Virus record (IMG/VR): IMGVR_UViG_3300042893_001481
Source of the DNA: a virus
Length of the DNA: 64,000 nucleotides
Direction: 5' to 3' (one strand)
Part shown: positions 1-20,262 of the stretch, one piece after another
Position numbering within the stretch: the stretch's first letter is position 1
Layout of the letters: each line of letters begins with the position of its first letter
Program-made: the position numbers and the translations under genes
Notes under the pieces: generated by a model
Databases searched by the model: none
Told to the model about the DNA's origin: nothing
The model's input: the letters and a program-made list of their open reading frames with translations, nothing else

Positions 1-294
1 CTTAGAACACAATGGTATTTAGATATTTGTAATATAAAATACTTTATGTCTTCATTTATGAATATTTTTTCTGATGAAAAAATTATGAATCAACCAGATG
101 TAAAATATCTATATGAAATGGTTGATTTTTCTAAATTTTTACCGATAGAAGGTTTTTACGAATGGAATCGAGAACATTATCCTGTGGATGGTTTTAATGA
201 TTTAAAATTAGACTGGCATCCTAATGAGTTTGGTAATGTAAAACTCACTGAAGAAATAATAATTCCCCATTTAATAAAAAATAACATAATTTAA
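1..294 (+). CDS. SGNH/GDSL-like protein, 5'-truncated by window edge (paralog of next gene)
   Basis: Frame open from base 1 (LRTQWYLDICNIKYFMSSF) matches ILRTQWFLNKLGIKYFMTSY in 297..1097; C-terminal DWHPNEFG = SGNH block V (DxHP). Confidence 0.6.
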   Translation, partial: LRTQWYLDICNIKYFMSSFMNIFSDEKIMNQPDVKYLYEMVDFSKFLPIEGFYEWNREHYPVDGFNDLKLDWHPNEFGNVKLTEEIIIPHLIKNNII

Positions 295-296
295 TA

Positions 297-1097
297 ATGA
301 GTGAAAATAAGATTTTTATTGCGGCGGGGGGTGAGTTTGTTAATGACAAAAATAGTTGGCAACATATCTGTAAAGAAAAGTTAAATTATGAACTTCACGA
401 TTTAACAGAAGTAAAAATAAGTAACGCCATAATATCAAGAAAAATAATATATAAAGTCAATGAATTAATTAAAACACATAAAACAGAAGATATTATTGTT
501 GGAATTGTGTGGACAATACCTATGATACATGAAAGGTATATATCCAATGGTAAAAATGATGATTATATGGGTAAATCTGAAACGGGGTTTACAAGTGTGG
601 TGGACAATGTAAAAAATTGGAGAATTTTAAATCATGATAGTATTTCATCTTCTGAAGATTGTGAATTATATTTTAAAATTATATACAATAAACTGCAATC
701 ATATGTTTTAAGTTTGGAACACATATTAAGAACACAATGGTTTTTAAATAAGTTAGGAATTAAGTATTTTATGACATCATATGTAGATATTTTTCATTAT
801 GAAAAGAACTTTTTAAAAATGTATGATTTTTCAAAATTAACGGATTATAAAAGAGAATGTTATAGATTAAACATATTAGGTTATAATGAAGTCACTTACC
901 TACATGGAATGATAGATACAAGACAATTTTTACCCATATATAGTATGTTAGATTGGTTACAGGAAAATTGTGCAGATAATGGATTTAAGGATTCTGAAAA
1001 ATTAATTCCAAATGGTTTTGGACACGAGAAATTTGCAACTGAAGTCATAATTCCATACCTAAAAGAAAAAAACATAATTCATAATGAAATTATCTAA
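297..1097 (+). CDS. SGNH-like protein, probably catalytically degenerate
   Basis: FIAAGGEF at the G-[DC]-S position, SNAIISR, LIPNGFGH at the HP position; paralog of upstream gene. Confidence 0.55.
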   Translation: MSENKIFIAAGGEFVNDKNSWQHICKEKLNYELHDLTEVKISNAIISRKIIYKVNELIKTHKTEDIIVGIVWTIPMIHERYISNGKNDDYMGKSETGFTSVVDNVKNWRILNHDSISSSEDCELYFKIIYNKLQSYVLSLEHILRTQWFLNKLGIKYFMTSYVDIFHYEKNFLKMYDFSKLTDYKRECYRLNILGYNEVTYLHGMIDTRQFLPIYSMLDWLQENCADNGFKDSEKLIPNGFGHEKFATEVIIPYLKEKNIIHNEII

Positions 1098-1118: not shown

Positions 1119-1259
1119 ATGAAACTAATTTGTTTTGGAGATAGTTGGACTGCAGGACACGGAGGGGAATATAATGAAGGTGGATTTCATCCTAATTTAT
1201 TAGGATATAAAATAATTTCCGATTTTATTTACAATAAAATTGGATTTCAAACTAATTAA
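1119..1259 (+). pseudogene. 46-aa internally deleted SGNH hydrolase remnant (or mini-protein)
   Basis: Translates MKLICFGDSWTAGHGGEYNEGGFHPNLLGYKIISDFIYNKIGFQTN: block I and block V joined directly; both ends resemble 10485..11306. Confidence 0.65.
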
Positions 1260-1275
1260 AATAAAAGAATTTTAA

Positions 1276-2943
1276 ATGTACATAATTGGAATTTCAGCAT
1301 TTTATCACGATTCGTCTGTTTCTTTGTTTAGAGACAATCAATTGATATTTGCTTGTGAGGAGGAGAAATTTACAGGGATTAAACACGATAGTTCATTTCC
1401 CGTAATGGCTTTAGATTATATCTATAAAAACTACAAAATTACAGACAAAAATCTACAAGCTGTGTGTTACTATGAAGACCCTAAATTAAAACACGAAAGG
1501 GTAATTCAGAACATTAAACCCCAATGGTTTAAAAACCCACTATATTCTTTAAGGTCTTATTTAAAAATAAAGAATAACGCAAAGGAGATTGATAAAAGAT
1601 TAAAAGAATTATCACCAAATGTGTTTTATTCAACACATCACGAAGCTCATCTTTATTATTCATATTACACTTCTCATTATGAGAAAGCTATGTGTTTATC
1701 TGTTGACGGTGTGGGTGAACACGATACACTTTCATTAGGAATATGTGATTATGGTGGAATTGAATATGGTAGTATGGCTAAATATCCTCACTCATTGGGT
1801 TTATATTACACCGCAATGACTACATTCCTTGGATTCAGACCAAATGAAGGTGAATACAAATTGATGGGTTTAGCATCTTACGGAGACCCAAACATTTACT
1901 TAGATAAGGTGAGAAAATTAATTTCATACAAAAATTCAAGTTTACAATGTAATATGGATGTATTTGTTTGGAATAAGTCAGATAAAATAATGTTCAATGA
2001 AAAATTACCAGAACTACTTGGGATTGAACAAAGATTACCTGAAGAGAAAATTGAAACGATACATGAAAATTTAGCCGCTTCAATACAAAAAGTATATGAA
2101 GAGGTTTTATTTGAAATATTAAAAACTGTATCAATTATTAGTAACAGTAGTAATTTATGTTTGGGTGGGGGTTGTGCATACAATGGAACCGCTAACGGAA
2201 AGATTTTAGAAAATTCTACTTTTAAAAGTTTATGGATTCCACCAGCACCATCGGATGCGGGGTCTGCAATCGGTGCCGTGGTTCACTACCTTGTTAAAGA
2301 AAAAAAGATTAGAAGTAAAATAACAAGAAACCCATTTTTAGGACCTGAATATCTTTATAACGATATTAAAAAGTCAATACACGGATTAAATTATAAAAAT
2401 TTTGTTAGTGAGAAAGGTTTAGTGGAATATGTTGCAAAAAAATTAAATGAAGGTAAAGTTGTTGGTTGGTTTCATGGTCATATCGAATTTGGGTCTAGAG
2501 CTTTAGGTAACAGATCAATATTAGCGAACCCAACCTTAGACGACATGAAGGACAGGATTAATAGAGTTATTAAGAAAAGAGAAGGGTTTAGACCATTCGC
2601 ACCAATGGTTATTAAAGACGAACAAGAGGTCTATTTTGAGATGAATGGTGACATACCATACATGAACCAAGTGGTACAGGTTAAACCCGAATATAGGTCT
2701 AAATTAAAGGCGGTAACTCATGTTGACGGAACCGCAAGAGTACAAACGGTATTCAAACATTCTATGATGTATAAGTTATTGGAAGAGTTCAAAAAACATA
2801 GCGGATTTCCAATACTTTTGAACACATCGTTCAATGTTAAAGATAAGACCATGGTTCTAACCCCAAAAGACGCAATCGATACATTTTTCGATACGGAAAT
2901 GGATTTATTGGTTATGGGAAATTACGTAATATATAAAAAATAA
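1276..2943 (+). CDS. Carbamoyltransferase, NodU/CmcH family
   Basis: HDSS, EEEKFTGIKH, HHEAH, DGVGE, EYKLMGLASYG, GGCAYN, EFGSRALGNRS, FRPFAP, HVDGTARVQTV, LNTSFN. Confidence 0.95.
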   Translation: MYIIGISAFYHDSSVSLFRDNQLIFACEEEKFTGIKHDSSFPVMALDYIYKNYKITDKNLQAVCYYEDPKLKHERVIQNIKPQWFKNPLYSLRSYLKIKNNAKEIDKRLKELSPNVFYSTHHEAHLYYSYYTSHYEKAMCLSVDGVGEHDTLSLGICDYGGIEYGSMAKYPHSLGLYYTAMTTFLGFRPNEGEYKLMGLASYGDPNIYLDKVRKLISYKNSSLQCNMDVFVWNKSDKIMFNEKLPELLGIEQRLPEEKIETIHENLAASIQKVYEEVLFEILKTVSIISNSSNLCLGGGCAYNGTANGKILENSTFKSLWIPPAPSDAGSAIGAVVHYLVKEKKIRSKITRNPFLGPEYLYNDIKKSIHGLNYKNFVSEKGLVEYVAKKLNEGKVVGWFHGHIEFGSRALGNRSILANPTLDDMKDRINRVIKKREGFRPFAPMVIKDEQEVYFEMNGDIPYMNQVVQVKPEYRSKLKAVTHVDGTARVQTVFKHSMMYKLLEEFKKHSGFPILLNTSFNVKDKTMVLTPKDAIDTFFDTEMDLLVMGNYVIYKK

Positions 2944-2948
2944 AACAT

Positions 2949-3065
2949 ATGATGAAGTTAATTAATTGGATTAAGAAGTATTTTGCCGACCGAAAAAGAA
3001 AAAAAGAATTTAAGAAGAAATTAGAGGAACTACGTAAAAGAGACCCATTTACCTACAACCACTAA
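2949..3065 (+). CDS. Small basic protein (38 aa) downstream of carbamoyltransferase
   Basis: MMKLINWIKKYFADRKRKKEFKKKLEELRKRDPFTYNH; fills the gap after the carbamoyltransferase. Confidence 0.6.
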   Translation: MMKLINWIKKYFADRKRKKEFKKKLEELRKRDPFTYNH

Positions 3066-3128
3066 GATGATAAAAATCATCTATTAATTATTTGATTTTT
3101 TAGATTTTTTTACCTATATTATAGTATT

Positions 3129-3563
3129 ATGATATATTGGTTTACAGGTCAACCCGGTGCAGGAAAAACTACATTGGCTAAACATTTAGTCACGTATTTT
3201 GAAAATAAAAATGTGATTCACATTGATGGAGATGATTTGCGTGACATCTTTCAAAATAAAGATTACTCAGAATTCGGTAGAAGAAAAAATATCGAAAGAG
3301 CCCAAGATATTGCTCGATTCATGAGTCAAAAAGGATTCAACGTTATTGTTTCGTTGGTGTCACCATACCGCGACCAACGAGAAGAATTCAAAGAAAATAA
3401 TCAAGTTAAAGAAATATATGTTCACACGACAGACGAAAGAGGTCGTGAAAATTTTCATGTGACCGATTATGAAACCCCTAATAATAATTTCATAGATATT
3501 GATACCACCAATAAAAAAGAGGTGGATTCATTCATCGAACTAACAGTTAAATTAGATATATGA
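3129..3563 (+). CDS. cysC: Adenylylsulfate (APS) kinase
   Basis: WFTGQPGAGKTT P-loop, IDGDDLR, GRRKNIER, SLVSPYRDQR. Confidence 0.9.
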   Translation: MIYWFTGQPGAGKTTLAKHLVTYFENKNVIHIDGDDLRDIFQNKDYSEFGRRKNIERAQDIARFMSQKGFNVIVSLVSPYRDQREEFKENNQVKEIYVHTTDERGRENFHVTDYETPNNNFIDIDTTNKKEVDSFIELTVKLDI

Positions 3564-3940
3564 GTAAAAAATACGCAATGTACATCGGAAGATGGCAAAA
3601 TTGGCACAAAGGACATGAGTGGTTAATCAACCAACAATTAAATCAAGGTAAAAATGTTTGGGTTGCAATTAGAAATGTTGACCAAGACGAGAATAATCCT
3701 AAAACGGCACAAGAAATTTTAAAGGAATTATCAAATGAACCTTTCTTTACAAATAATTTTGATAAAATTTTATTATCAATTATACCCGACATTGAATCGG
3801 TAAATTATGGTAGAGGAGTTGGTTATGATGTAATTTACCATGAACCACCTGCAGATGTTGCAGTTATAAGTGGAACGGCCATTAGGACTGGTCACATGAC
3901 ACCTGATGGTGAAATTAAATATGACCAAACTAAAGGATAA
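3560..3940 (+). CDS. HxGH-type nucleotidyltransferase (cytidylyltransferase-like)
   Basis: IGRWQNWHKGH, YGRGVGY, ISGTAIR. Confidence 0.75.
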   Translation: MSKKYAMYIGRWQNWHKGHEWLINQQLNQGKNVWVAIRNVDQDENNPKTAQEILKELSNEPFFTNNFDKILLSIIPDIESVNYGRGVGYDVIYHEPPADVAVISGTAIRTGHMTPDGEIKYDQTKG

Positions 3941-4149
3941 TGATAGTAGAACGTAAGAGACACATAGCAAAAACCATCTCATATCGTATTGTAAGTACGT
4001 TAATTGGTTTCCTATTAATGTGGTTGATAAGTGGATCAATTAAAGTCGGTGCTGCGTTTGGTGTTGCGGAATTGATTTATAAACCGATACAATACTATTT
4101 TCATGAGAGAATTTGGTATAAATGGATCAAGTACGGACTTAAAAAATAA
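3940..4149 (+). CDS. DUF2061-like small membrane protein
   Basis: KTISYRI...YYFHERIW with hydrophobic helices. Confidence 0.75.
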   Translation: MIVERKRHIAKTISYRIVSTLIGFLLMWLISGSIKVGAAFGVAELIYKPIQYYFHERIWYKWIKYGLKK

Positions 4150-4154
4150 AATAT

Positions 4155-4718
4155 ATGATTGGTAATATAGATATATTTGAAAACTTCCTGTCACCTGAAG
4201 AGTGTGATTCCATTTTAAATAAATGCAAACAAGAATTAATATTATCAGGTGCGGAGGTATATACTGGTGATTCTAATACCATACCTACTAAAAAAAATAG
4301 AAAATCATCAGTTGGTTGGATATCCGATTTAGGATTTTTAAATGAGAGATTAACAAATAAATTACGAGAAACTTTCAATATAAATGGTATGGAAGTTACG
4401 GGATTGGGAGATTACCAATTTACCGAATATAAAGAAGGTGAATATTTTGACTGGCACACCGATAGTACTGATGTTATATATAGAGATAGATTTACATCAA
4501 TAGTAATTCAGTTAAATGACACATACAAAGGTGGTGTATTAGAAATTAAAAATATTAAAGGTGAAATAGTACCAGTAGAAAATAAAATTGGAACGTTGTA
4601 TATTTTTAATTCAAGGTTACTTCATAGAGTAGTTCCAGTAATTGAGGGTGTACGTTATTCGTTAGTTAATTGGATATCATTGGTTAAAACCGATTTTAAA
4701 AAACAAAATTTAATATGA
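4155..4718 (+). CDS. 2OG-Fe(II) oxygenase (prolyl-hydroxylase-like)
   Basis: FLSPEEC, WHTD, GGVL, LHRVVPV, GVRYSLVNW. Confidence 0.9.
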   Translation: MIGNIDIFENFLSPEECDSILNKCKQELILSGAEVYTGDSNTIPTKKNRKSSVGWISDLGFLNERLTNKLRETFNINGMEVTGLGDYQFTEYKEGEYFDWHTDSTDVIYRDRFTSIVIQLNDTYKGGVLEIKNIKGEIVPVENKIGTLYIFNSRLLHRVVPVIEGVRYSLVNWISLVKTDFKKQNLI

Positions 4719-5332
4719 TAAACGGGTACCACATATTTGATGATATAATTCCAGAATTAAATCAAAATAAATTAGAAGAGTATGTAAAACTTTCAAATTT
4801 AAAGTGGAATTATCAACACAATATTACCGGTCAATATGGAGGAACGGAATCATTAAAATTACCTGCAAATGTTTTAAAAGGTATTGACATTAATGATAAT
4901 GATATTGTTAATATTATAAATTCAATAAAATTAAACTTATTGAATAAACTTAATGTTGAATTTCTGAGGGATTATAGATGTAAGATAAATTGGACTGTAC
5001 CGATAATTGAAAATTATGATTTTAAAAATTTAATACATGTTGACATGGATGTTAATCATATTGCGATTGTTTACTACATAAATAATTCCGATGGAAATAC
5101 TATTTTTTTAAACAATAAAAATGGTATTTCATCAGAATCTCGACAAAGTAATTTTATGAATATTAATATGGATGAATTTGAGATAGTAAATAGTGTACCC
5201 CCCAAAAAAGGAAGAGCAGTCATATTCAATGGTAACATTTATCACTATGGTGAATACCCAACTACAACCGATAGATTCGTAATTAATTTTGATTTAGTTG
5301 GTAAAGATAAGAATAAAAATAATTTATTATAA
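4715..5332 (+). CDS. 2OG-Fe(II) oxygenase
   Basis: IHVD, YYINNSDGNT, PKKGRAVIFNG.IYH, RFVINF. Confidence 0.8.
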   Translation: MINGYHIFDDIIPELNQNKLEEYVKLSNLKWNYQHNITGQYGGTESLKLPANVLKGIDINDNDIVNIINSIKLNLLNKLNVEFLRDYRCKINWTVPIIENYDFKNLIHVDMDVNHIAIVYYINNSDGNTIFLNNKNGISSESRQSNFMNINMDEFEIVNSVPPKKGRAVIFNGNIYHYGEYPTTTDRFVINFDLVGKDKNKNNLL

Positions 5333-5796
5333 TGGAAAAACGAGTTACACTTTTTAAAAATTTTTTATCCGTTGAGGAATGTGATACTCTTTTAAACACA
5401 TATAAAAACGAAACATTTGTGGATAGTGAATTTCTAAATAAAAAATTAAAAAATTATTTAGAAAAAATAAAATTTAATGGAAGTAGTGTAAGTGTAAATG
5501 AAATAAAAATTTACAATATATCTACCGAAAATACAAATGCATCATTTTTAGAAGAACCCAAATATGATATTACATTACTAATATCATTAAATTCCGATTT
5601 TGAAGGTGGAAGATTTATTTTCTTAAACAAAGATATTGATAAAAATATGCATATGGACAATTCACCAGGAGACATGATAGTTTTCTTTTCAAACATTAAT
5701 TATGGAAGTGGTAAAATAATCAATGGTACAAAATATTATTTAAAAATTGGCACTAACAATGTTTTAGATTCACAAATAACCAAATCACTTATTTAA
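5332..5796 (+). CDS. 2OG-Fe(II) oxygenase fold, metal ligands apparently lost
   Basis: FLSVEEC, LNSDFEGG, GDMIVF, GTKYYL retained; no HxD and distal His replaced. Confidence 0.6.
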   Translation: MEKRVTLFKNFLSVEECDTLLNTYKNETFVDSEFLNKKLKNYLEKIKFNGSSVSVNEIKIYNISTENTNASFLEEPKYDITLLISLNSDFEGGRFIFLNKDIDKNMHMDNSPGDMIVFFSNINYGSGKIINGTKYYLKIGTNNVLDSQITKSLI

Positions 5797-5801
5797 TTTT
5801 T

Positions 5802-6446
5802 ATGGAAAAAGTAATGTACGATACGAAAACATATCTTTACAGAGATATATTAAATCTTTCAGATTTTAAAGATGAGATTTTAAAAAAGTGTAATGAAATT
5901 ATAGAAAGTCTACCAAATGTTACTCAAGATGGTTATGGGTATTTTGAAGAAAGTAAAGATTTAAATTTCATAGGTGAAATTGAAATTAAAAATAAATTAG
6001 ATGAAATTTTAAAGTTTGGAATTCAATCATGTATTGATGTGTACCAACTTGAGTATAATTTACCATTTAATAAAATTAGTACAGATTGTTGGGTAAATGT
6101 GGTTAGAGCTAAAAATCCTGTACAATTTGATGACATTGAAAGTGAATTACATCAATATCATATACACACTGAGATAAATGAAAAAAATAAAAAATTCATA
6201 CCACATTTTACGTGGGTGTATTATATTCAAATGCCCGATAATTTAAAAGATGATGATGGTACTTTATATATTAAAGGTGAAAATGATATTGAATATTTTA
6301 TTTTACCAAAAGAAGGTGATTTTATAATAATGAAATCAGATTTACCTCACTCACCACAACATGCGTTAGACTCAACAAAAGATAGAATGGTATTGGCTGG
6401 AAATGTTGGATTTGAATTTATTAAAAAACAAAAATCATTGATATAA
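5802..6446 (+). CDS. 2OG-Fe(II) oxygenase-like protein (HxH type)
   Basis: WVN, HIH, VYYIQMP, PKEGDFIIM..DLPH, DRMVLAGN. Confidence 0.75.
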   Translation: MEKVMYDTKTYLYRDILNLSDFKDEILKKCNEIIESLPNVTQDGYGYFEESKDLNFIGEIEIKNKLDEILKFGIQSCIDVYQLEYNLPFNKISTDCWVNVVRAKNPVQFDDIESELHQYHIHTEINEKNKKFIPHFTWVYYIQMPDNLKDDDGTLYIKGENDIEYFILPKEGDFIIMKSDLPHSPQHALDSTKDRMVLAGNVGFEFIKKQKSLI

Positions 6447-6447
6447 T

Positions 6448-7677
6448 ATGGAATATAGTTTAGATAAAATTGTTATAGTTGGGGGAGGTACGGCGGGATG
6501 GTTATCCGCATTGTACTTAAATAGTAAATTTAAAAATTCAAAAATAACATTAATTGAGAGTGATGAAATTGGAATATTAGGGGCAGGAGAAGGAACAACT
6601 GGCAATATAGTAAAATTTTTAAATAATTTAGGAATTTCGCCTGATGATATGATTAATAACTGTGAGGCAACATTTAAAACAGGTATCGATTTTGAAAATT
6701 GGACAAAGCCCGGTTCGATATTTACTCACCCAATAGATTATAAACCAAAGGGTGATGGATATGCATATCATTTTAATGCTAGGTTATTAGTAAAATATCT
6801 TAAATCATTAGCAATAGAACGAGGTGTTAATTGGATTGAAGGAATTGTAACTGAACCAATTTTAAATGATACGAATCAAATTATTGGACTTAAAACAATT
6901 GATACAATGATTGATGCTAGCTTTGTTATTGATTGTAGTGGATTTAAACGATTATTGATTGGTAATCATTATAAATCAAATTGGATTTCATATGAAGAAC
7001 ATCTAAAAGTAAATACAGCAATTCCATTTTTTTTACCAACCAATAGTATAAACATCCGTACAACAACCAAATCTATTGCAATGAAATATGGATGGATGTG
7101 GCAAATCCCATTACAAAGTAGAAGGGGATGTGGGTATATATTCGATTCAACTGAAATTAGTGAGGATGAAGCTAAAAAAGAAATAATTGAATTCTTAGGT
7201 GCCGATGTTGATATTCAGTTTAATAAACCAATTAAATTTAAACCGGGTTCATATGAAAATGTATGGATTGAAAATTGTTTAGCAATCGGTTTAAGTGGAG
7301 GGTTTTTAGAACCATTAGAGGCAACATCAATAATGACTACAATTTTACAATTAGAGGCATTTTATGATACTACTTTAAAAAAAATGACATTGAAAAAATA
7401 TAATAAATTTGTAAATACAATCAATACTCAAAATATGATTTTTATTTATTATCATTATTTAACAAATAGAACCGATAGTACTTTTTGGAAAAAAGTTTCA
7501 GCTGCCGCAGCTGACTTACCATATCCGTTGGATTTATTAATAGATTCATCATATAATTTTAAACCAAAAAAACAATTGGTCGAATTATTTGAAAAGGACT
7601 CAACTATTATATTTGGTTCGTTTTCATATAATAAAATAAATAAAGGTATTAAACAAACCCAACCCCCATTGATATAA
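6448..7677 (+). CDS. Flavin-dependent tryptophan-halogenase-family protein
   Basis: GGGTAGW, GAGEGT, ATFKTGI (catalytic Lys), IDCSGF, WMWQIP, GFLEPLEAT. Confidence 0.9.
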   Translation: MEYSLDKIVIVGGGTAGWLSALYLNSKFKNSKITLIESDEIGILGAGEGTTGNIVKFLNNLGISPDDMINNCEATFKTGIDFENWTKPGSIFTHPIDYKPKGDGYAYHFNARLLVKYLKSLAIERGVNWIEGIVTEPILNDTNQIIGLKTIDTMIDASFVIDCSGFKRLLIGNHYKSNWISYEEHLKVNTAIPFFLPTNSINIRTTTKSIAMKYGWMWQIPLQSRRGCGYIFDSTEISEDEAKKEIIEFLGADVDIQFNKPIKFKPGSYENVWIENCLAIGLSGGFLEPLEATSIMTTILQLEAFYDTTLKKMTLKKYNKFVNTINTQNMIFIYYHYLTNRTDSTFWKKVSAAAADLPYPLDLLIDSSYNFKPKKQLVELFEKDSTIIFGSFSYNKINKGIKQTQPPLI

Positions 7678-8406
7678 ATGTTAATAGAAAACAAATTTTT
7701 ATTTATTAGTTTACCAAGATGTGCCTCCACATCCTTTTATATTTCCTGTTTAAGAAATGGTTTGGATGTAAAACATGTTGACCAAAATTTTGTAAATGGA
7801 TATAGTAATAGAATTGATTTAAGTTTAGATAATGAATCTCTTGCCGATAGATTGGTACATTTACATGAGACTATATACGATTTAAAAAACCATTTTGGGA
7901 ATGATTATGAGGTAATTACAATAAAAAGAAATAGACATGAAAGATTTATTTCGGTTTGGAAACATTTAATTGATATGATTTACATGGATTATGGTAAAAA
8001 ATATGGTGACATATTAAAAGAGTTAAATGAAGAAGATATTTTTTTTTATAAAAATACCGATATTATCAATATTAATGACATGTATAAAATGATTGATAAG
8101 TTTATAAAAAAAATTGGTTTGAATGAAATATATGATGAATATATACAAAATATGTTTAAAATAACATTTCACCCAACATCACATTGGCATAATAATGACT
8201 CAAATATAAAATGGTTTGAGTTTGGAAAATTTGATGAATTAGAAGAATGGGTTTCAAATAAAATTGGTAAACCATTTAAAATGGAAAAATCAAATGGAAG
8301 TCAACATTTCGAGTGCAATTTAAAAATGAATGATAAGTTTGTCACCCATTACAATTCTATTTATGATAGGTATGATATTTTTAAATCAAACAAAACATTG
8401 ATATGA
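7678..8406 (+). CDS. Sulfotransferase-family protein
   Basis: FISLPRCASTS (5'-PSB-like) and RNRHERFISVW (3'-PB-like). Confidence 0.7.
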   Translation: MLIENKFLFISLPRCASTSFYISCLRNGLDVKHVDQNFVNGYSNRIDLSLDNESLADRLVHLHETIYDLKNHFGNDYEVITIKRNRHERFISVWKHLIDMIYMDYGKKYGDILKELNEEDIFFYKNTDIININDMYKMIDKFIKKIGLNEIYDEYIQNMFKITFHPTSHWHNNDSNIKWFEFGKFDELEEWVSNKIGKPFKMEKSNGSQHFECNLKMNDKFVTHYNSIYDRYDIFKSNKTLI

Positions 8407-8708
8407 TAGATTTTAAAGATATTTATGAATCTTGGAAAAAATCAGGAAACCCCACCGATATTGAAAAGCAACATGCGTTCGAAAGGTTGTCAATATGTAA
8501 GGGTACCACCACCGCACCAAAATGTGAATATTATGTTGAAATTGTTAAGAATAAAAAGTGGTCATCTTTATGTGTAAGTTGTGGATGTCCCATACCTAAA
8601 AAAATATTTACAAATAAAACACCATCCTGTCCAAAAAATAAATGGGACATCATCGACCTTAATTACAACACTAATATTGTGATAAAAAACAAAAAAACCA
8701 TTTTATAA
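8403..8708 (+). CDS. Small Cys-rich putative metal-binding protein
   Basis: RLSIC...C...CVSCGC...K...CPKNKW. Confidence 0.65.
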   Translation: MIDFKDIYESWKKSGNPTDIEKQHAFERLSICKGTTTAPKCEYYVEIVKNKKWSSLCVSCGCPIPKKIFTNKTPSCPKNKWDIIDLNYNTNIVIKNKKTIL

Positions 8709-8771
8709 CGTATATACATATATATTATAAATAAATTTTTGAAAATGAATATTTATTATTCCCTTTTAAGA

Positions 8772-8779
8772 TATTTATA
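8772..8779 (+). promoter_or_regulatory. TATTTATA putative late-promoter motif upstream of ATP-grasp-Hint gene
   Basis: Same motif precedes the tail fibre and putative head-protein genes in this window. Confidence 0.5.
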
Positions 8780-8805
8780 AGTATATTTAAAATAAATAAA
8801 GATTT

Positions 8806-10308
8806 ATGAAAGCAACAATAATTGGTAGTGATTTACTACAACAAGGTGATTCGGTAAAGATTTTAGAAATAAACACTAATACCACCATATATAACGAAGG
8901 GGCTGATTTATTGGATTATGTTGCATTATTTGACATGTTAATCCAAAATAATATTACGGAATTCCACTATATATATACGGATTTAGAGGCGTTTTTACCA
9001 TTAAAATTCCCACATAGATTTGAAGAAATCTTAAAAGAAAAATGTGTTGAAAATGGAATGACATACACACCACATTTAGTGGCTCAAAATTCTGTAACAG
9101 TTCCTTACATTGAGGACGCTGTTAATAAATTTATTCTAAGACAATCTTTTGACACAACCGCTTTGGTGGACGAAACATATTGTGCGGATAAGTATGAATT
9201 TTTTAATTTAATGAGTGGTTCCACGTTTATTCCAAATACGTACTTTAACACTACCGAATTGTCATTAGATACTTTGTCTGAATTAAATTTCACAAATGGG
9301 TTGGAACCAAACTTAGTAAAAAAACATAGATATCCCTCATATGATGCAAAACAATTACCCGCATTATATTCAATTGAAAATCAATTAGATTTTGATACGT
9401 TTAAAACAACAATAGATAATACAGAAAATAATTTAATACAGGAATTCATATATGACACACAAAACATTGTTGATGGTAGATATTGTGTTATTAGAGGTAT
9501 CGATATAATATATGGTTCTAATTTAGATGTGATTAATTTAGGTGGGTATAGACAATCTACATTGTTACCATTATCTTTTGCCACAAATGAATTTAAAACG
9601 GACAGTAGAGAATTAAAACAAAAAAGTAGATATAAATATATAACTAAAGCCTTAGGTAAATGGGGTATGGTTGACTATCACGTAGAAGACGATAGTAATA
9701 TTTTAAAATACGATGGATCACTTGCAGACCTTAGTACCATTCAAATTGGTGACTACATGCGTTCAATAGATTTTACCGATTATAATGGAAATAAAGCTGG
9801 AGAAGCTGATGTTACAAATATGCAAGCATTTGGTTGGGATTGTGATTTAGTACAAGCGAATGCGACATTGACACAATTAAGTACAACTTTACAAGAAGTT
9901 GTCTCCGCCGTTGTTGACACAATTCACATTAGAATTACATTAGATAATGGGTTGAGTTGGGTCGATTCACCTAGTTGTAAGTACCTTATTGAAGAATCTG
10001 GATCAACTGAAACCAGATTTGATAATGTTAATAATTTATATATTGGTGATAAATTAGTGGTTACCGATTCCAACACCAATCAATTAACAACGGTAGCAAT
10101 TACGGGATTGGAAATGGAATATGCTTCTAAAACAATTTATGGTTTAGATTTTGCTCCATCTGATTTGTTCTTAGTTGATGTTGGAGAAGGATTATATAGT
10201 GTAATGCACAACCCGACATGTTGGTGTAGTTATTCATATTGTGGTAATTGGTGTTACGAATCGTGGTGCCCAACTTGTAGGTGGGGTGGTGGTCCTGCGA
10301 AACTTTAA
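8806..10308 (+). CDS. Circularly permuted ATP-grasp domain + Hint domain + C-terminal Cys/Trp-rich peptide
   Basis: N-terminal GSDLL..VKILEINTN (ATP-grasp ExN motif moved to the N-terminus), DKYEF..IPNT, LVKK, IQEFI; Hint-like DGS..IQIGD, LYIGD, IYGL..VMHN; tail PTCWCSYSYCGNWCYESWCPTCRWGGGPAKL. Confidence 0.7.
   Translation: MKATIIGSDLLQQGDSVKILEINTNTTIYNEGADLLDYVALFDMLIQNNITEFHYIYTDLEAFLPLKFPHRFEEILKEKCVENGMTYTPHLVAQNSVTVPYIEDAVNKFILRQSFDTTALVDETYCADKYEFFNLMSGSTFIPNTYFNTTELSLDTLSELNFTNGLEPNLVKKHRYPSYDAKQLPALYSIENQLDFDTFKTTIDNTENNLIQEFIYDTQNIVDGRYCVIRGIDIIYGSNLDVINLGGYRQSTLLPLSFATNEFKTDSRELKQKSRYKYITKALGKWGMVDYHVEDDSNILKYDGSLADLSTIQIGDYMRSIDFTDYNGNKAGEADVTNMQAFGWDCDLVQANATLTQLSTTLQEVVSAVVDTIHIRITLDNGLSWVDSPSCKYLIEESGSTETRFDNVNNLYIGDKLVVTDSNTNQLTTVAITGLEMEYASKTIYGLDFAPSDLFLVDVGEGLYSVMHNPTCWCSYSYCGNWCYESWCPTCRWGGGPAKL
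9679..10212 (+). other. Hint (intein-like) domain, predicted C-terminal cleavage only
   Basis: HVEDDSNILKYDGSLADLSTIQIGDYMRS (block A, His at position 1 instead of Cys); DSPSCKYL at block B (no TxxH); IYGLDFAPSDLFLV...MHN (blocks F/G intact). Confidence 0.7.
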
Positions 10309-10335
10309 AATAAAACAAATTAAATAAAAAATAAC

Positions 10336-10476
10336 ATGGCAAAGAAAGAAAGAGTAGAAAGACCGTTACAAACAATAAAAACGAACATAACCCCAATTAC
10401 AACCGATTTAAAAGTTAAAGTGGCAAATGCCTTCCAATCATTTGTAACGGCAATCAAAGTAAAACACCTTTCATAG
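10336..10476 (+). CDS. Small basic protein (46 aa), not in ORF track
   Basis: MAKKERVERPLQTIKTNITPITTDLKVKVANAFQSFVTAIKVKHLS; A-rich leader; fills the gap between 10308 and 10485. Confidence 0.65.
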   Translation: MAKKERVERPLQTIKTNITPITTDLKVKVANAFQSFVTAIKVKHLS

Positions 10477-10484
10477 TATGTATT

Positions 10485-11306
10485 ATGAAATTAGTTACAT
10501 TTGGGGATAGTTGGACTGAAGGGGTTGGGGGCAATATTAGTGAGGAATCGGCAACAGATATACCTGAAGAAAAAACAAACATAAGACAAAAATATTGTTG
10601 GCCAAAACACTTATCGGAATTACTCACTTGTGAAGTTAAAAATGTTGGGGTCGGATCATTTTCTAACAACTCCATATTCAATTCAATTTCTCGTCAATTA
10701 AAAAATGGAATCATCACTCAAGATGATTTCGTTGTTATTATGTGGTCATCATCTTTACGGGATTCATTACCTTTTTTCCCTACTGAAGATGATTTTTTTA
10801 TTTGGGGTAAACGATATAAAAGTAAAGAACACCTTTTAAAGTATATTTTTGATGGAGTTAATAGTGATAATATAAACTATAATAGGGCAGAAAAAAACTT
10901 TAGAGATTATTACATTAATAATTTATTTAGTGATACCTACTACGATATAGTAAATCAAAATTACATATTACATCTTCAATTTATGTTTAAAGAATTAGGT
11001 ATTAGATACCTTTTTTGTGATGGATTTGATATAATGATTAATAAAAATATTGATACGTTAGTTGACAAATCCCATTTAATTGAGAGTAATAGATATTGGG
11101 GTTATAGAGATAAAACTATGGCAAATTTATTAATTAATACTAATAGAAAAGATGTGTGGCAAGATAATAACCATTGGGTTGATACCACAGCAGGTAAACA
11201 CCCAAGTAGTAATGGATATAAATTGATTGCTGAGGAATTATATAAATTTATAAATGAGGGTAATTTATTAGTACCCATCAAACTAAAAAATTCAAATCTA
11301 TTATGA
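10485..11306 (+). CDS. SGNH/GDSL hydrolase-family protein
   Basis: FGDSWTEG, GVGSFSN, KHPSSNGY. Confidence 0.8.
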   Translation: MKLVTFGDSWTEGVGGNISEESATDIPEEKTNIRQKYCWPKHLSELLTCEVKNVGVGSFSNNSIFNSISRQLKNGIITQDDFVVIMWSSSLRDSLPFFPTEDDFFIWGKRYKSKEHLLKYIFDGVNSDNINYNRAEKNFRDYYINNLFSDTYYDIVNQNYILHLQFMFKELGIRYLFCDGFDIMINKNIDTLVDKSHLIESNRYWGYRDKTMANLLINTNRKDVWQDNNHWVDTTAGKHPSSNGYKLIAEELYKFINEGNLLVPIKLKNSNLL

Positions 11307-11869
11307 ATTATACCATAAATAGTAATTTTTGTAATAGTGAAACTGCTAAAGATATCATTGAGTTCTGTATTAAATTTGGTGAACCGTTTTCATACAACCC
11401 GTCAGAACGATGGGATTGTAGACGAATATATGATTCTGATTTTAAAAAGAGAATAATTGATTTATTAATAACCAATTATAAAAACGGATATTTTAAATTA
11501 TGGTTTGATTACTCTACCTTTAATTTAAAGAATTTTAATATCAGTCTAACTTCATATTATGATGGTAGATATCTCAATTTGCATAAAGATAAATCAAGTG
11601 AATTAACGACCGTGATTGTCCTTTCAGATAACTTTGAAGGTGGTCAGTTTGCTTTATGTGGTGATAAAAATCCACCTATTAATTTTGAAACCCTTGAAGG
11701 TATAAGTACATTTGACTTAAAATTGGGTGATTTAATTTCATTTAATGGTTCCGAAACCTATCACGGAGTGTTACCGGTAACAAATGGAACGAGGTATGCC
11801 TTGAATATTTGGATGACAGAAACTGATTTTGATTACCCTAAATTAAAATCTAATAAAACTGTTATATAA
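11303..11869 (+). CDS. 2OG-Fe(II) oxygenase
   Basis: LHKD, FEGGQF, YHGVLPVTNGTRYALNIW. Confidence 0.9.
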   Translation: MNYTINSNFCNSETAKDIIEFCIKFGEPFSYNPSERWDCRRIYDSDFKKRIIDLLITNYKNGYFKLWFDYSTFNLKNFNISLTSYYDGRYLNLHKDKSSELTTVIVLSDNFEGGQFALCGDKNPPINFETLEGISTFDLKLGDLISFNGSETYHGVLPVTNGTRYALNIWMTETDFDYPKLKSNKTVI

Positions 11870-11903
11870 TGTTAACTAAAAAAAATAATACAAATAAACT
11901 AAT

Positions 11904-12422
11904 ATGAAACTATCAATCGATGATTTAGTTTTTTTAAAATCTGAATTAAATAACACTCGAATAATGAATGAAGAAGATTTAAGCTATATAAAATCAGCAC
12001 ATCCCCAATTATATCATACCACAAATCCAGAAAAAGCCGATATTCTATCTCTCTTTCCAAATGATAGTTGGGTTTATACTTTAGAAAATAAAAATTTAAA
12101 TGAATTTATTTGTAATAAATTTGAAGAACCCATTGATAATTTATACATAATGCATAGATTAATATATGGTGAAAATGGTTATGCTAAAAAACATAAAGAT
12201 AGATTTACAACACATAAGACCGTTAGTATTTTATTGTCATCCGATTTTACAGGTGGTGAAATGTATATAAATGATAAAGATCTATCATTGACAAATGAAG
12301 GAGATTATATTGTATTCAATGGGGGTAATGAATCCCACGAAGTAAAAAAGATAATTAATGGGGAACGAGATGTATTAATAATATGGTTTTCAAAAAAGAA
12401 AGCAGAATTTAGTATCATATGA
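11904..12422 (+). CDS. 2OG-Fe(II) oxygenase
   Basis: KHKD, FTGGEM, HEVKKIINGERDVLIIW. Confidence 0.85.
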   Translation: MKLSIDDLVFLKSELNNTRIMNEEDLSYIKSAHPQLYHTTNPEKADILSLFPNDSWVYTLENKNLNEFICNKFEEPIDNLYIMHRLIYGENGYAKKHKDRFTTHKTVSILLSSDFTGGEMYINDKDLSLTNEGDYIVFNGGNESHEVKKIINGERDVLIIWFSKKKAEFSII

Positions 12423-12898
12423 AAATATTAATAATAGCATTACCCAGAACCGGCTCAACTTCTCTTTTAAAAAAAATATCTAAAGATAGAAATCTAAAAC
12501 CATTCTTTGAACCATTTGATGGGACTGGTAGAGTTATCTATAACAATGAAGATAATTCGGTTGTTAAAACAATTATATCACACTACCAAAATAATTTAGA
12601 ACTTATTAATAACTTTGATGAAATTATACTTCTTAATAGAAAAAATATAAAAGAGTTAATAGAATCTCACTCATATCAAACGTATTTTTTAAAAACAGGT
12701 TATAATTCTAATAATCCATATGTCTATAAAGAACCACCACAAGAAATAATAAATTTGTGTACGTCTGATATACTAAATTGGAATGAGGAAATCAACCAGC
12801 TTTCAAAAATTACTAAAATACCAATTACATACTATGAAGATATTTTTGATAATAATTCAGCGGATAGGTTACGAATGTCAATAACTAATATAATTTAA
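12419..12898 (+). CDS. Sulfotransferase-like P-loop protein
   Basis: IIALPRTGSTSL, FEPF, YYEDIF; paralog of 62079..62636. Confidence 0.65.
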   Translation: MKILIIALPRTGSTSLLKKISKDRNLKPFFEPFDGTGRVIYNNEDNSVVKTIISHYQNNLELINNFDEIILLNRKNIKELIESHSYQTYFLKTGYNSNNPYVYKEPPQEIINLCTSDILNWNEEINQLSKITKIPITYYEDIFDNNSADRLRMSITNII

Positions 12899-13944
12899 TG
12901 ATAGATTTAAAACAATATACGTGTAGTAATCCATTTACCACTTTAGAAATACATGATAATGTTGGGTTTGTTTGTTGTCCATCTTGGTTACCAAATAAAA
13001 TAGAACTTAATGATACATCTTTAAAAAATGTATATAATAGTGAACCGGTTGTGGATATTAGAAATTCCATTTTAGATGGTTCATTTAAATATTGTAACAA
13101 AGAATTATGTCCACATTTAAGTAGATTGTTAAACTATGGTGTCACCTCTGGCCCTATTCACTTAAAATCAAATTCAAAATATACAACACCAATTATTGAA
13201 CCAACCACACCGACCACAATTTTAATGAATTTTGATAGGACCTGCAATTATAAATGTCCATCGTGTAGAGTCGACTTAATTGTTGAAAGTAGTAAAGGTA
13301 TAGAACGAATAGAAAAAACAATAGACGAGATTGATACCTATTATTCGGCAAACGTAAAAACTTTATACATTACTGGTACTGGAGATCCCTTTGTTTCAGT
13401 TAGTTTTAGAAATTATTTAAGAAACTTTAATCCAAAAAAATACCCAAAATTAACAAGTATACATTTTCATACAAATGCATCAATGTGGACAAAGGAAATG
13501 TGGGACAGTATGCCAAATGTTCATAAGTATGTAACAACGTGTGAGATATCAATAGATGCAGGAACACAAAACACCTATGAAAATAAAACCAGATTAGGTG
13601 GTAAGTGGGATACCTTAATAAATAATTTAAAATTTATTTCTACAATAGAAACATTGAAATCAGTAAAAACATCGTTTGTTGTTCAAGATAGTAACTATAT
13701 GGAAATGGAAACCTTTTATAATTTAATGTATTCTATTTTTGGAAAAAAGGTAAATGTGTTTTTTGGTAAAATAGTTAATTGGGGTACATTCTCAGATGGT
13801 GAATTTAAATTAAAACAGGTTTGGGATACCAATCACCCTGAGCATGAGTTATTTAAAAAAGAATTTAATAGGATATGGAAAAACACTAATCTATTTCATA
13901 ATTTATATGAATTTGTCGACACCACACAAAAAACTTTAATATAA
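12898..13944 (+). CDS. Radical SAM enzyme with N-terminal SPASM/twitch-like domain
   Basis: CNYKCPSC, GTGDPF, HTNA, ISIDAG, RLGGKW; N-terminal CSNPF...CC...C...CP. Confidence 0.9.
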   Translation: MIDLKQYTCSNPFTTLEIHDNVGFVCCPSWLPNKIELNDTSLKNVYNSEPVVDIRNSILDGSFKYCNKELCPHLSRLLNYGVTSGPIHLKSNSKYTTPIIEPTTPTTILMNFDRTCNYKCPSCRVDLIVESSKGIERIEKTIDEIDTYYSANVKTLYITGTGDPFVSVSFRNYLRNFNPKKYPKLTSIHFHTNASMWTKEMWDSMPNVHKYVTTCEISIDAGTQNTYENKTRLGGKWDTLINNLKFISTIETLKSVKTSFVVQDSNYMEMETFYNLMYSIFGKKVNVFFGKIVNWGTFSDGEFKLKQVWDTNHPEHELFKKEFNRIWKNTNLFHNLYEFVDTTQKTLI

Positions 13945-14630
13945 TGTCCAATATAAGAAGTGTGGGATTTATTGAAAAACATTTTGATGAACATTCAGAA
14001 TTTATTATAAGTAAAATAAATGAATCATCAATATCTTTAAGTAGAATATCAAATAAAGATTTAAATGAATTAATTTATCCGATTGTACATTTAATTGATT
14101 TTGAATTCAACGGAGATTCTAAATTTTTATTGAATAAAACAATAGATGAAATGGATTTGATGTATTCAAATTGGTATAAGTTGCACGAAAAAATGTTTAC
14201 AACATTTAATTATGTGGAAAAAAATAATATAATTTTAGACTATAGAAAAAATGGAGTTGGGTATTATTGGGTTGATTTAAATTGTTATTATAGTTATGAA
14301 ATGTTATTTAGATTACATAACTGTGGTAGAGTCAACTCCCATCAAAATCTTTTGGAACTTAGAGAATATGATATAAATGGATACAACTATAGTAGGGTTG
14401 TTGTTGTCATATGTAACAATGGATTTATAAATCAAATTAAAGGAGATTATAATCTGAAACCTGATTTTATTTATAAAGATTATATATATGATTTATTTTT
14501 AAATTATAAAGAATTAAAGGGATTTAAAATATTAACTCCAAATAATAATAATTTTACCCATATGGATTTAAATGATACAGAGTTATCTAATTTAAAAAGA
14601 ACACGTCCAGAATTCTTTTTCCTAATATAA
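13944..14630 (+). CDS. Hypothetical protein
   Basis: 228-aa ORF coupled to radical SAM gene (TAATG overlap); HNCGR, QIKG..N.KP. Confidence 0.6.
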   Translation: MSNIRSVGFIEKHFDEHSEFIISKINESSISLSRISNKDLNELIYPIVHLIDFEFNGDSKFLLNKTIDEMDLMYSNWYKLHEKMFTTFNYVEKNNIILDYRKNGVGYYWVDLNCYYSYEMLFRLHNCGRVNSHQNLLELREYDINGYNYSRVVVVICNNGFINQIKGDYNLKPDFIYKDYIYDLFLNYKELKGFKILTPNNNNFTHMDLNDTELSNLKRTRPEFFFLI

Positions 14631-14679
14631 TTTTTCAATTTATTTGATATTTTCGTGGATTTTCTCTATATTATCTATA

Positions 14680-17400: not shown

Positions 17401-18056
17401 GTACATTAAACAAAATAGCACAAAGTTATGGAACTGATAAAAGTTCCGATTGTCACAATTATTGTGATAAATACTCTAATTATCTTCCATTCAAAAGATA
17501 TGATAAACTAAACATCATGGAGATTGGTGTATTAGACGGACAATCTGTAAAAACATGGAAAGAATATTTCTATCGTTCCAATATATTAGGTATCGATATT
17601 AACCCTGATTGTAAGAAGTATGAGGAATCAGGTATATCAGTTGAGATAGGTTCACAAGCTGACGGTAACTTCCTATCAAGAATTTGGCAACAATACGGAC
17701 CATTTGACATGATATTAGATGATGGTTCACATATGAATAGTCACGTGATATTTTCATTTGAACATTTATTTCAATCTGTAAAATCGGGTGGTATATATAT
17801 TGTTGAAGATTGTGCAACATCATATTGGAGTCATTGGGAAGGTGGTTATCTTAAAGAAACAACAATGATGGAATATTTTAAAAGATTAACCGATGATGTA
17901 AATTTTAGAGGGGTAATGAATCTCGATAAACCAAATGTTCATGCAAGAAGAGAAGATTGGTGTACGGAAACATTATTAAAAGAACAATCAGATTGTAGAA
18001 CGGACATTGAATCCATAACATTCCTTAATGGAATAATATTAATTAGAAAACGTTAA
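17397..18056 (+). CDS. Class I SAM-dependent (sugar) O-methyltransferase
   Basis: GTDK..HNY, MEIGV, GIDI, GSQ, ILDDGSH, GGIYIVED. Confidence 0.85.
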   Translation: MSTLNKIAQSYGTDKSSDCHNYCDKYSNYLPFKRYDKLNIMEIGVLDGQSVKTWKEYFYRSNILGIDINPDCKKYEESGISVEIGSQADGNFLSRIWQQYGPFDMILDDGSHMNSHVIFSFEHLFQSVKSGGIYIVEDCATSYWSHWEGGYLKETTMMEYFKRLTDDVNFRGVMNLDKPNVHARREDWCTETLLKEQSDCRTDIESITFLNGIILIRKR

Positions 18057-18066
18057 AATATAATAC

Positions 18067-20202: not shown

Positions 20203-20232
20203 ATTTCTTTGTCCCAAATAAAAATATTGAAG

Positions 20233-20239
20233 TATTTAT
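20233..20239 (+). promoter_or_regulatory. TATTTAT putative late-promoter motif
   Basis: Upstream of tail fibre gene; recurrent motif. Confidence 0.5.
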
Positions 20240-20262
20240 TGTTGTATAATACAATATAAGAT

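Follow-up and report, generated by a model that had tools for sequence, protein, structure and literature searches.

A 64,000-nucleotide stretch of DNA from an uncultured, large aquatic phage (IMG/VR record IMGVR_UViG_3300042893_001481; in the following "the window") carries a block of tailoring enzymes, nearly all of which end in the same short C-terminal peptide, K-x-[ST]-[LI]-[IL]-COOH, subsequently designated the label. Amid their genes lies that of a 500-aa protein, designated PRE (8806-10308, + strand), which is composed of an ATP-grasp domain of the glutathionylspermidine synthetase (GspS) type, a Hint domain and a 31-aa tail containing six Cys residues. This tagged-enzyme module is real and undescribed: the arrangement goes far beyond chance and recurs in hundreds of related contigs, and no description of PRE, its enzyme partnership or the label was found in the open-access literature. 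The tailoring enzymes form one unit, and the label is the strongest sign of this. Tentatively, with slightly less than even confidence, we favor a PRE-centered tailoring module, in which the labelled enzymes would be gathered on PRE and the tail would then be released. The original prediction had seen in positions 1276-14630 a possible full pathway resembling those for peptides that are made by ribosomes and modified after translation (RiPPs), whose chemistry matches the released peptide. Linkage of the enzymes to PRE and the label lend partial support to such a pathway, but the match between chemistry and peptide was not borne out.

PRE and its genomic neighborhood

The window has a low GC content (~30%) and its genes also include a collagen/S74-type tail fiber, DNA methyltransferases, a polymerase exonuclease piece and a phosphoesterase. 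No cultured phage resembled it at the DNA level, as megablast of the block returned no match. Between positions 1276 and 14630 all genes are located on the + strand, most of them overlapping by 1-4 nt or being separated by gaps of less than 15 nt, confirming the prediction that co-oriented, mostly coupled genes flank PRE on both sides.

Using four PRE alignments spanning distant clades as seeds, ~290 loci were collected from IMG/VR and metagenomes and annotated with profiles built from the window proteins. Scanning of IMG/VR with a single protein gave no match, and it was the alignment-based scans that retrieved the loci. Across 202 non-identical loci, some of them from clades of ~25% identity, PRE has the same families as neighbors, with the gene order being shuffled. 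The close clade shows a nearly fixed order, OG4-(2OG)-ST1-Cys101-PRE-46aa-(SGNH)-2OG-ST2, where 2OG denotes 2-oxoglutarate-Fe(II) oxygenases with OG4 as one family, ST1 and ST2 are sulfotransferase-like proteins, Cys101 is a Cys-rich protein of 101 aa and 46aa is a small protein of that length. Clades that are 25-45% identical to PRE contain the same families beside PRE in other orders, sometimes near replication genes and not near fibers. In many relatives the block terminates at a fiber gene or at a gene encoding more than 1000 aa. The conclusion that the enzymes and PRE form one conserved functional neighborhood is supported. Presence of the individual families was counted in well-flanked loci, 77 with and 31 without a Cys-rich tail on PRE:

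Cys101: 95% with Cys-rich tail, 6% without
ST1: 90% with, 3% without
2OG: 95% with, 100% without
SGNH: 83% with, 71% without
ST2: 78% with, 58% without
APS (adenosine 5'-phosphosulfate) kinase: 62% with, 3% without
Carbamoyltransferase: 55% with, 29% without
Radical SAM: 49% with, 42% without
Halogenase: 36% with, 6% without

Among new loci that were retrieved with Cys101 as seed, 40 of 40 contained PRE, located at most 300 nt away in 37 of them; this set overlaps the same clade. When co-occurrence and synteny were checked, as the original prediction had proposed, Cys101 and ST1 proved to be tied to PRE, whereas homologues of the halogenase and of the 2OG oxygenases (32-40% identity) also occur without PRE in 83 records of cultured cyanomyophages and pelagimyophages. 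Of note, the closest relative, L007 (IMGVR_UViG_GVMAG-M-3300009164-63_000001; 85% identity), is filed in public data together with L169 and L328 among contigs of giant-virus metagenome-assembled genome bins. These three contigs are probably mis-binned, because they have the gene content of the present phage group.

The PRE family comprises at least 597 homologues of near-full length, forming 268 clusters at 50% identity. No match to PRE was obtained by tblastn in cultured phages, and searching the PDB with its profile gave no sequence match. An AlphaFold2 (AF2) model based on an alignment of 57 relatives reached a predicted local distance difference test (pLDDT) score of 77, and three regions can be distinguished:

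8806..9651, + strand: PRE residues 1-282, ATP-grasp domain of the glutathionylspermidine-synthetase/YgiC type (AF2 model, structure comparison with VIA)
9667..10212, + strand: PRE residues 288-469, Hint domain (AF2 model, VIA, Foldseek)
10213..10305, + strand: PRE residues 470-500, tail of 31 aa containing 6 Cys, 4 Trp, 3 Tyr and a single Lys (sequence; pLDDT ~30, unstructured in the model)

The ATP-grasp domain aligned in VIA with 7uka (Z 9.8; 203 residues aligned, rmsd 3.9) and 2io7 (Z 9.0), and with glutathione synthetases at Z 7-8, which is a moderate match overall. Candidate Mg-ATP-binding residues are D9, E21 and N23 (as E21-x-N23), R112 and R230, which are invariant among 46 diverse members from all clades, and K173, which is nearly so. 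The Hint domain was matched more closely, with Z 15.8 to the bacterial intein-like (BIL) domain 2lwy (136 aligned, rmsd 2.0; Foldseek E 8e-08) and Z above 10 to more than 25 inteins, Hedgehog and BIL domains. Its terminal residues H468 and N469 are invariant in all clades (alignments A1, A2, A3, A4 and A5). The Cys, Ser or Thr nucleophile at the N-terminus is absent; in this part of the domain (the structural alignments begin at ~288-291) the close clade has an invariant H292. As His occupies the position of the N-terminal nucleophile, PRE is not a splicing intein, and established intein chemistry predicts that at most C-terminal cleavage is plausible.

Conservation extends over PRE residues 1-469, where column identity averages 72% in the close clade. 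Relatives differ in the tail, a hypervariable segment in which the frame of six Cys residues stays fixed. Exactly one Lys is present in 127 of 155 non-identical Cys-rich tails (82%) and none in only 4, the proteome containing 8% Lys; in the close clade this single Lys is the second-last residue. Following the His-Asn pair, most relatives possess a Cys-rich segment of 20-100 aa, and some have only 2-7 residues. Other relatives carry a second complete Hint domain or a fiber-type S74 autocleaving chaperone after the Cys-rich segment, which can therefore be flanked by self-cutting modules on both sides. In some relatives (P0122-P0269; loci L223-L289) the first His-Asn is directly followed by between one and three additional complete Hint domains (CF.AGT...VHNK). 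A single 211-kb contig (IMGVR_UViG_3300042892_005961; loci L111 and L143) encodes two PRE paralogues ~38 kb apart with different tails, and each of them has its own Cys101 and ST1.

The C-terminal label and the families that carry it

In 1252 non-identical genes the label has the consensus K/N at position -3, T/S/K/N at -2, L/I at -1 and I/L at the last position (0), and Lys is enriched from -6 to -3. Its frequency among orthologues is 98% for ST1, 97% for the halogenase, 95% for ST2, 63-95% for the 2OG families, 80% for the radical SAM enzyme, 75% for Cys101 and 44-72% for SGNH proteins. Frequencies of merely 0-8% were obtained for orthologues of the carbamoyltransferase (8% of 63), APS kinase, nucleotidyltransferase-like protein, DUF2061 protein, glycosyltransferase 4 (GT4)-methyltransferase fusion, methyltransferase and fiber. 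In the window, 13 of the 15 genes within 4155-14630 carry the label versus 7 of 89 elsewhere, and four of these seven are upstream SGNH-like genes or belong to a satellite pair at 60926-62636. Since this pair carries the label at a distance of 46 kb from the block, the label marks membership whatever the position. Its distribution therefore divides the cluster into a labelled tailoring set tied to PRE and an unlabelled supply and glycan set.

Synonymous codon choice for the Leu residues of the label matches usage in the gene bodies, all three stop codons occur, and one fifth of the labelled genes have 16 nt or more to the next gene. On these three grounds we rejected the label as a by-product of gene overlap or of an AT-rich ribosome-binding region, and they argue that it is selected at the protein level. 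The clade lacking the Cys-rich tail keeps the label and shows further labelled families. There, PRE is followed in L223, L227, L231 and L238 by labelled proteins of 143-162 aa with SET-like motifs (G.GVFA ... GEE.L..Y), and a labelled 180-aa Rossmann protein is also found in this clade; all these assignments, as well as the SDR-like appearance of some of the further families, were made by eye only.

The labelled genes of the window and their closest associates are the following:

46..1097, + strand: two SGNH-like open reading frames (ORFs; 46-294 and 297-1097) upstream of the range first considered, labels ..NNII and ..NEII (profile from the island SGNH proteins, tag scan); 297-1097 has no Pfam match
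1119..1259, + strand: 46-aa fragment with the SGNH N-terminal GDSWTAG motif, probably a remnant (translation, family profile)
4155..4718, + strand: 2OG-Fe(II) oxygenase, prolyl 4-hydroxylase (P4H)-like, label ..KKQNLI (Pfam 2OG-FeII_Oxy_3 1.6e-13)
4715..5332, + strand: 2OG-Fe(II) oxygenase, label ..NKNNLL (Pfam 1.7e-04, under cut-off; HxD and distal His in the sequence)
5332..5796, + strand: degenerate 2OG-fold paralogue, label ..TKSLI (BLASTP to 4155-4718, E 2e-08)
5802..6446, + strand: 2OG-Fe(II) oxygenase of the OG4 family, which usually adjoins the halogenase, label ..KQKSLI (Pfam 3.7e-04, family profile)
6448..7677, + strand: flavin-dependent (Trp-type) halogenase, 409 aa, label ..QPPLI (Pfam Trp_halogenase, PF04820, 3.6e-93)
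7678..8406, + strand: ST1, sulfotransferase-like with PRCASTS P-loop, label ..SNKTLI (profile A7 versus heparan-sulfate 2-O-sulfotransferase, E 5e-04)
8403..8708, + strand: Cys101, 101-aa Cys-rich protein, label ..NKKTIL (alignment A6)
10485..11306, + strand: SGNH/GDSL-like hydrolase or acyltransferase, label ..NSNLL (Pfam Lipase_GDSL 1.4e-03 and DUF6071 1.2e-04, both under cut-off; GDSWTEG motif)
11303..11869, + strand: 2OG-Fe(II) oxygenase, label ..SNKTVI (Pfam 4.9e-10)
11904..12422, + strand: 2OG-Fe(II) oxygenase, label ..EFSII (Pfam 3.2e-06)
12419..12898, + strand: ST2, sulfotransferase-like with PRTGSTS P-loop, label ..ITNII (profile A8 versus NodH, E 8e-04)
12898..13944, + strand: radical SAM enzyme, label ..TQKTLI (NCBIfam NF033640 1.2e-15, 57 bits versus a cut-off of 170; Pfam Radical_SAM 7.5e-06)
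13944..14630, + strand: 228-aa protein of no assigned family, ending ..FFFLI (no Pfam or NCBIfam match; 23 relatives among the loci)
60926..62636, + strand: satellite pair 46 kb from the block, 383-aa protein (..YKTLI) and ST2 paralogue (..TQDLI) (profile and tag scan of the whole window)

The enzyme families named in the original prediction fared differently. Clear Pfam support was obtained for the carbamoyltransferase, the APS kinase and the flavin Trp-halogenase, the latter scoring 313 bits against a cut-off of 21, containing GGGTAGW and a W-x-W-x-I-P-like motif and sharing 32-40% identity with the halogenases that cultured cyanomyophages and a pelagimyophage encode. Of six proposed 2OG oxygenases five are intact, but the protein encoded at 5332-5796 lacks both iron-binding His residues, as S-T-E takes the place of H-T-D in the alignment and Y that of the distal H; it may represent a non-catalytic binding subunit. 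The two sulfotransferase-like proteins are weakly supported as sulfotransferases: all matches to Pfam Sulfotransfer_1/2/3/4 were sub-threshold (found in 3 of 24 ST1 and 11 of 29 ST2 orthologues), as were the profile matches listed above, and a P-loop resembling the 5'-phosphosulfate-binding loop is present in the sequence. For the protein proposed to be a radical SAM/SPASM enzyme, the radical SAM part holds, with the CX3CX2C cluster present as CNYKCPSC. The SPASM part had to be dropped, because the last ~130 residues (past ~residue 215) contain no Cys; NF033640, a family with an N-terminal twitch, is the best model with a score under its cut-off, and the Cys-rich, twitch-like region is N-terminal. 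Assignment of 10485-11306 to the SGNH proteins is backed by the GDSWTEG motif, Pfam matches being weak.

The predicted Cys-rich protein was confirmed. Cys101 contains invariant Cys residues (C..C, CxxCGCP, C; alignment A6) and is almost always encoded directly beside PRE. Its AF2 model has a pLDDT of 80 with the label tail being disordered. No PDB fold matched it (Z at most 3.5), a weak atlas lead pointed to DUF6171 and its profile gave only weak zinc-ribbon-like matches. In cultured phages Cys101 had no tblastn match.

Unlabelled genes and further features of the region are:

1276..2943, + strand: NodU/CmcH-type carbamoyltransferase, unlabelled (Pfam Carbam_trans_N and Carbam_trans_C, E 4e-60 and 8e-65)
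3129..3563, + strand: APS kinase without canonical label (Pfam APS_kinase 1.8e-18)
3560..3940, + strand: 126-aa nucleotidyltransferase-like protein with HIGH motif (NCBIfam NMN-adenylyltransferase / cyt_tran_rel, E 5e-06 to 3e-04, under cut-offs)
3940..4149, + strand: DUF2061 small membrane protein, unlabelled (Pfam 2.8e-17)
8771..8780, + strand: motif ATATTTATAA, 26 nt before the PRE start (conserved in 70-90% of columns of 57 aligned upstream regions, including distant relatives)
10336..10476, + strand: 46-aa protein following PRE in the close clade, unlabelled (synteny)
14644..22059, + strand: unlabelled context comprising a GT4 plus FkbM-methyltransferase fusion, a methyltransferase, a heptosyltransferase-like GT9 and then the tail fiber (Pfam, PHROGs, fiber sequence)

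APS kinase, the 126-aa protein and DUF2061 form a fixed unlabelled triad in all clades (synteny APSK-NTase-DUF2061), the nucleotidyltransferase-like protein always being paired with APS kinase. The likeness of the 126-aa protein to HIGH-type nucleotidyltransferases agrees with the original prediction, but its best NCBIfam match (5e-06) is under the cut-off; it could possibly provide the sulfate-adenylylating step. Because of the fixed triad across clades, a role of DUF2061 in sulfate uptake or activation is suggested.

The motif ATATTTATAA is possibly a promoter or translation signal. It has only 3 copies in the window, where it is not enriched, and one of these lies 4 nt ahead of the ORF at 39214. 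Nor is there enrichment in the window of TATAAATA, the T4 late-promoter word (16 found versus 19 expected), which is located upstream of PRE in just 16% of the loci; scans for sigma-70 promoters and terminators stayed at chance level.

Short C-terminal peptides could also act as packaging or trafficking signals, by which the enzymes would enter the virion or another compartment as cargo and, once injected, would act on host targets, with PRE being co-located and not a substrate. A flexible C-terminal peptide that is disordered in the Cys101 model, is common to unrelated folds like cargo-loading or PTS1-type signals and is also carried by the distant satellite pair would fit this idea, as would the location of the genes in a late, structural region. 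However, no link to a receptor, capsid or portal was found, the enzymes require cytoplasmic cofactors (2OG, FADH2, 3'-phosphoadenosine 5'-phosphosulfate (PAPS) and S-adenosylmethionine), the PAPS module encoded by the phage itself speaks for activity in the course of infection and the tight adjacency to PRE would be left unexplained. We consider packaging very unlikely.

A small-molecule pathway, serving secondary or host metabolism and modifying free amino acids or a non-ribosomal product, appears similarly improbable. It would account for the pairs of halogenase and 2OG oxygenase occurring without PRE in the 83 cultured records, and the natural substrates of viral halogenases are, to our knowledge, unknown. 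Halogenated metabolites have been suggested previously (Iyer et al. 2010, PMC2938197). Against it speak that no NRPS, PKS or transporter was found in or near the block, that P4H-like and, in relatives, SET-like (by eye) families point to protein substrates, and that the label and the fixed partnership of PRE with Cys101 are specific to PRE-bearing phages. Indeed, none of nine halogenase and 2OG proteins from the cultured phages HTVC008M, P-SSM2 and Syn1, which lack PRE, carries the label.

Peptide tail, tail fiber and the substrate of the enzymes

If the enzymes act on the PRE tail, enzyme content might be expected to track tail composition, which the original prediction had proposed as a check. 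Cys101, ST1, halogenase and APS kinase are common beside Cys-rich tails and nearly absent without them. However, the tail class changes only once on the PRE tree, so that the contrast of Cys101, ST1 and halogenase between the tail classes represents one event and is statistically unusable. Trp is present in the tail in 28 of 28 halogenase-positive loci (mean 3.1 Trp), and 27 of 49 tails in halogenase-negative loci are devoid of Trp; this link rests on about three events, since only 3 changes of the halogenase are seen on the tree. Changes are more frequent for the carbamoyltransferase (25), radical SAM (20), APS kinase (20), ST2 (13) and SGNH (12). Co-variation of enzyme sets with peptide composition was not seen in independent contrasts, and the claim that enzyme chemistry matches the tail is not supported.

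Several observations weigh against the tail as target of a PRE-centered module. Apart from the single-event nature of the tail-class contrast, 18 halogenase-negative loci have tails with at least two Trp residues, and L168 combines a halogenase with a Trp-free tail. Moreover, 63 tests of enzymes versus tail composition (nine features), among them those on the frequently changing enzymes, yielded no consistent signal in independent contrasts, which signifies "no support" and not a refutation, because absence within 10 kb does not equal absence from the genome. 2OG, ST2, radical SAM and SGNH proteins as well as the label are retained in the clade in which PRE lacks the Cys-rich tail, and hence this tail cannot be the sole substrate. 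No RiPP recognition element (RRE), protease or exporter was recognized (RRE and leader peptidase: Pfam and NCBIfam searches of the island proteins); the Hint domain could stand in for a leader peptidase. Finally, the sulfotransferase-like proteins weakly resemble carbohydrate sulfotransferases, and the module is situated in a tail-fiber region, where decoration of fibers or glycans is the usual reading (PMC7029224, PMC2938197).

Such decoration of the virion or the host surface, as in a "host recognition cluster" of aquatic T4-like myophages, is a possible but rather unlikely explanation, related to the alternative of virion-protein or glycan modification that the original prediction had named, for the block as a whole: the enzymes would modify the tail fiber or a glycan, PRE would be one more ligase, and its tail a side feature or itself a virion decoration. 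The gene context lends it weight. The predicted limit of the cluster at 14630 did not hold, since the block continues with glycosyl- and methyltransferases and the fiber to ~30 kb. It runs into GT4/FkbM, methyltransferase, GT9 and a fiber with Ser/Thr repeats (20263-22059), with seven glycosyltransferase-type genes at 14.6-30 kb (Pfam, PHROGs), and a further operon of glycosyltransferases, epimerase and methyltransferases follows on the opposite strand beyond the block. The ending of the block at fibers or very large genes in many relatives, the persistence of most enzymes without a Cys-rich tail and the fiber-type S74 chaperone that terminates some PRE relatives point in the same direction, as do the matches of the sulfotransferase-like proteins to sugar sulfotransferases and the sugar-acting NodU/CmcH type of the carbamoyltransferase. 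In addition, bacterial clusters of 2OG oxygenases, sulfotransferases and PAPS genes have been predicted to act on tail-collar or collagen-like substrates (PMC2938197), and a host recognition cluster has been described for pelagimyophages (PMC7029224).

However, the fiber itself, which consists of (G-S/T-S/A)n repeats and an S74 chaperone domain, has no Pro, Lys, Trp or Tyr in these repeats, so that the repeats offer no such residues to P4H-type hydroxylases or to a halogenase. Collagen-type prolyl hydroxylation of the fiber was rejected for lack of Pro. PRE, Cys101 and ST1 are adjacent even where no glycosyltransferase or fiber is found within 10 kb (e.g. in L004, beside replication genes). 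Further, the label sets the tailoring enzymes apart from the glycosyl, methyl and carbamoyl transfer genes, and these are therefore unlikely to form one pathway. To the unlabelled genes, at least, fiber or glycan decoration probably applies. The window also contains three separate DNA methyltransferase genes inside 11 kb (30551-31240, 36920-37909 and 40910-41524).

From the families, folds, linkage and label described above we infer docking, substrate, cleavage and product of the PRE-centered module as follows. In large aquatic T4-like phages, PRE would be ringed by a changeable set of protein- or peptide-modifying enzymes. The label would bring these unrelated enzymes to a common partner, most plausibly PRE; characterized relatives of its ligase type (GspS) bind a free C-terminal carboxylate. 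The labelled enzymes would decorate the PRE tail or another polypeptide bound to PRE, PAPS would be supplied by the unlabelled APS kinase and nucleotidyltransferase, and cyclization of the Asn would then free the tail. The unlabelled carbamoyltransferase and the glycosyl- and methyltransferases would probably constitute a separate, adjoining fiber or glycan module.

A bolder version, which we regard as unlikely, assigns to PRE the functions of both hub and ligase. Its ATP-grasp domain would read the free K-x-[ST]-L-I-COOH of a dozen unrelated enzymes and would either dock them around the Hint-releasable tail or activate a carboxylate to form an amide with the single, conserved tail Lys or with the new N-terminus. 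The latter reaction could yield a covalent tag or a head-to-tail cyclized six-Cys peptide. If true, this would be a new phage-borne principle for organizing the tailoring of peptides or proteins.

Should the product be a decorated peptide released by Hint, hundreds of abundant lake and sea phages would possess a peptide natural-product pathway with a new release mechanism, and the shared C-terminal label would represent a new way to gather unrelated tailoring enzymes. The long-unexplained arrays of 2OG oxygenases and halogenases in aquatic T4-like phages would thereby gain their first substrate. Even with a fiber or a host protein as substrate, the label provides a simple handle with which all components of the system can be listed and its reader can be searched for.

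Comparison with known systems

RiPP clusters with large or fused leaders are exemplified by the proteusins, which have NHLP leaders, and by the borosins, in which enzyme and core are one chain. As in these clusters, PRE has a conserved N-terminal part and a hypervariable, core-like C-terminal segment, and hydroxylase, halogenase, radical SAM and sulfotransferase-type enzymes are clustered with a predicted built-in release of the core. Unlike in RiPP clusters, the "leader" of PRE consists of 470 aa of ATP-grasp and Hint, release is predicted to proceed by Asn cyclization and not by a protease, an RRE was not recognized, the enzymes have a C-terminal label in common and many of them persist without the core.

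With BIL and pretoxin-Hint domains of polymorphic toxins, PRE shares the Hint fold (the match to 2lwy being a domain from C. thermocellum), the terminal His-Asn and a variable C-terminal payload. It differs from them by His at position 1 in place of an N-terminal nucleophile, by a payload that is a Cys-rich peptide of 20-100 aa or nothing rather than a toxin domain, by fusion to a ligase and by being encoded by large phages of lytic type.

Short C-terminal signals are known from PTS1 (-SKL, read by PEX5), class I PDZ ligands and the cargo-loading peptides of encapsulins. Like them, the label consists of a few residues at the C-terminal end of a flexible tail and is carried by unrelated enzymes; in contrast to them it is phage-encoded, and its consensus K-x-[ST]-[LI]-[IL] matches none of them.

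Among phages, the arrays of Syn9, P-SSM2 and HTVC008M are comparable: they contain homologous halogenases (32-40%) beside P4H/PhyH-like oxygenases in a structural or hypervariable region (PMC2938197; Sullivan et al. 2010, PMC3037559), but have no PRE, Cys101, PAPS/sulfotransferase set or label. Cyanophage arrays of 2OG oxygenases and halogenases and bacterial clusters of 2OG, sulfotransferase and PAPS genes have been interpreted as systems for peptide or protein modification (Iyer et al. 2010, PMC2938197). Pelagimyophages and cyanomyophages possess a host recognition cluster rich in fibers and glycosyltransferases, a large non-syntenic island in the structural module (PMC7029224), and the block of the window abuts such genes. 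However, the description of that cluster mentions no PRE, label or such enzyme set, and the tailoring block is conserved and not hypervariable in content.

Taken together, the module resembles both a RiPP cluster whose leader is fused and enzyme-like and a release of pretoxin-Hint type, yet we do not count it as a member of either group, because several of the features that define each of them are absent or not clearly evident.

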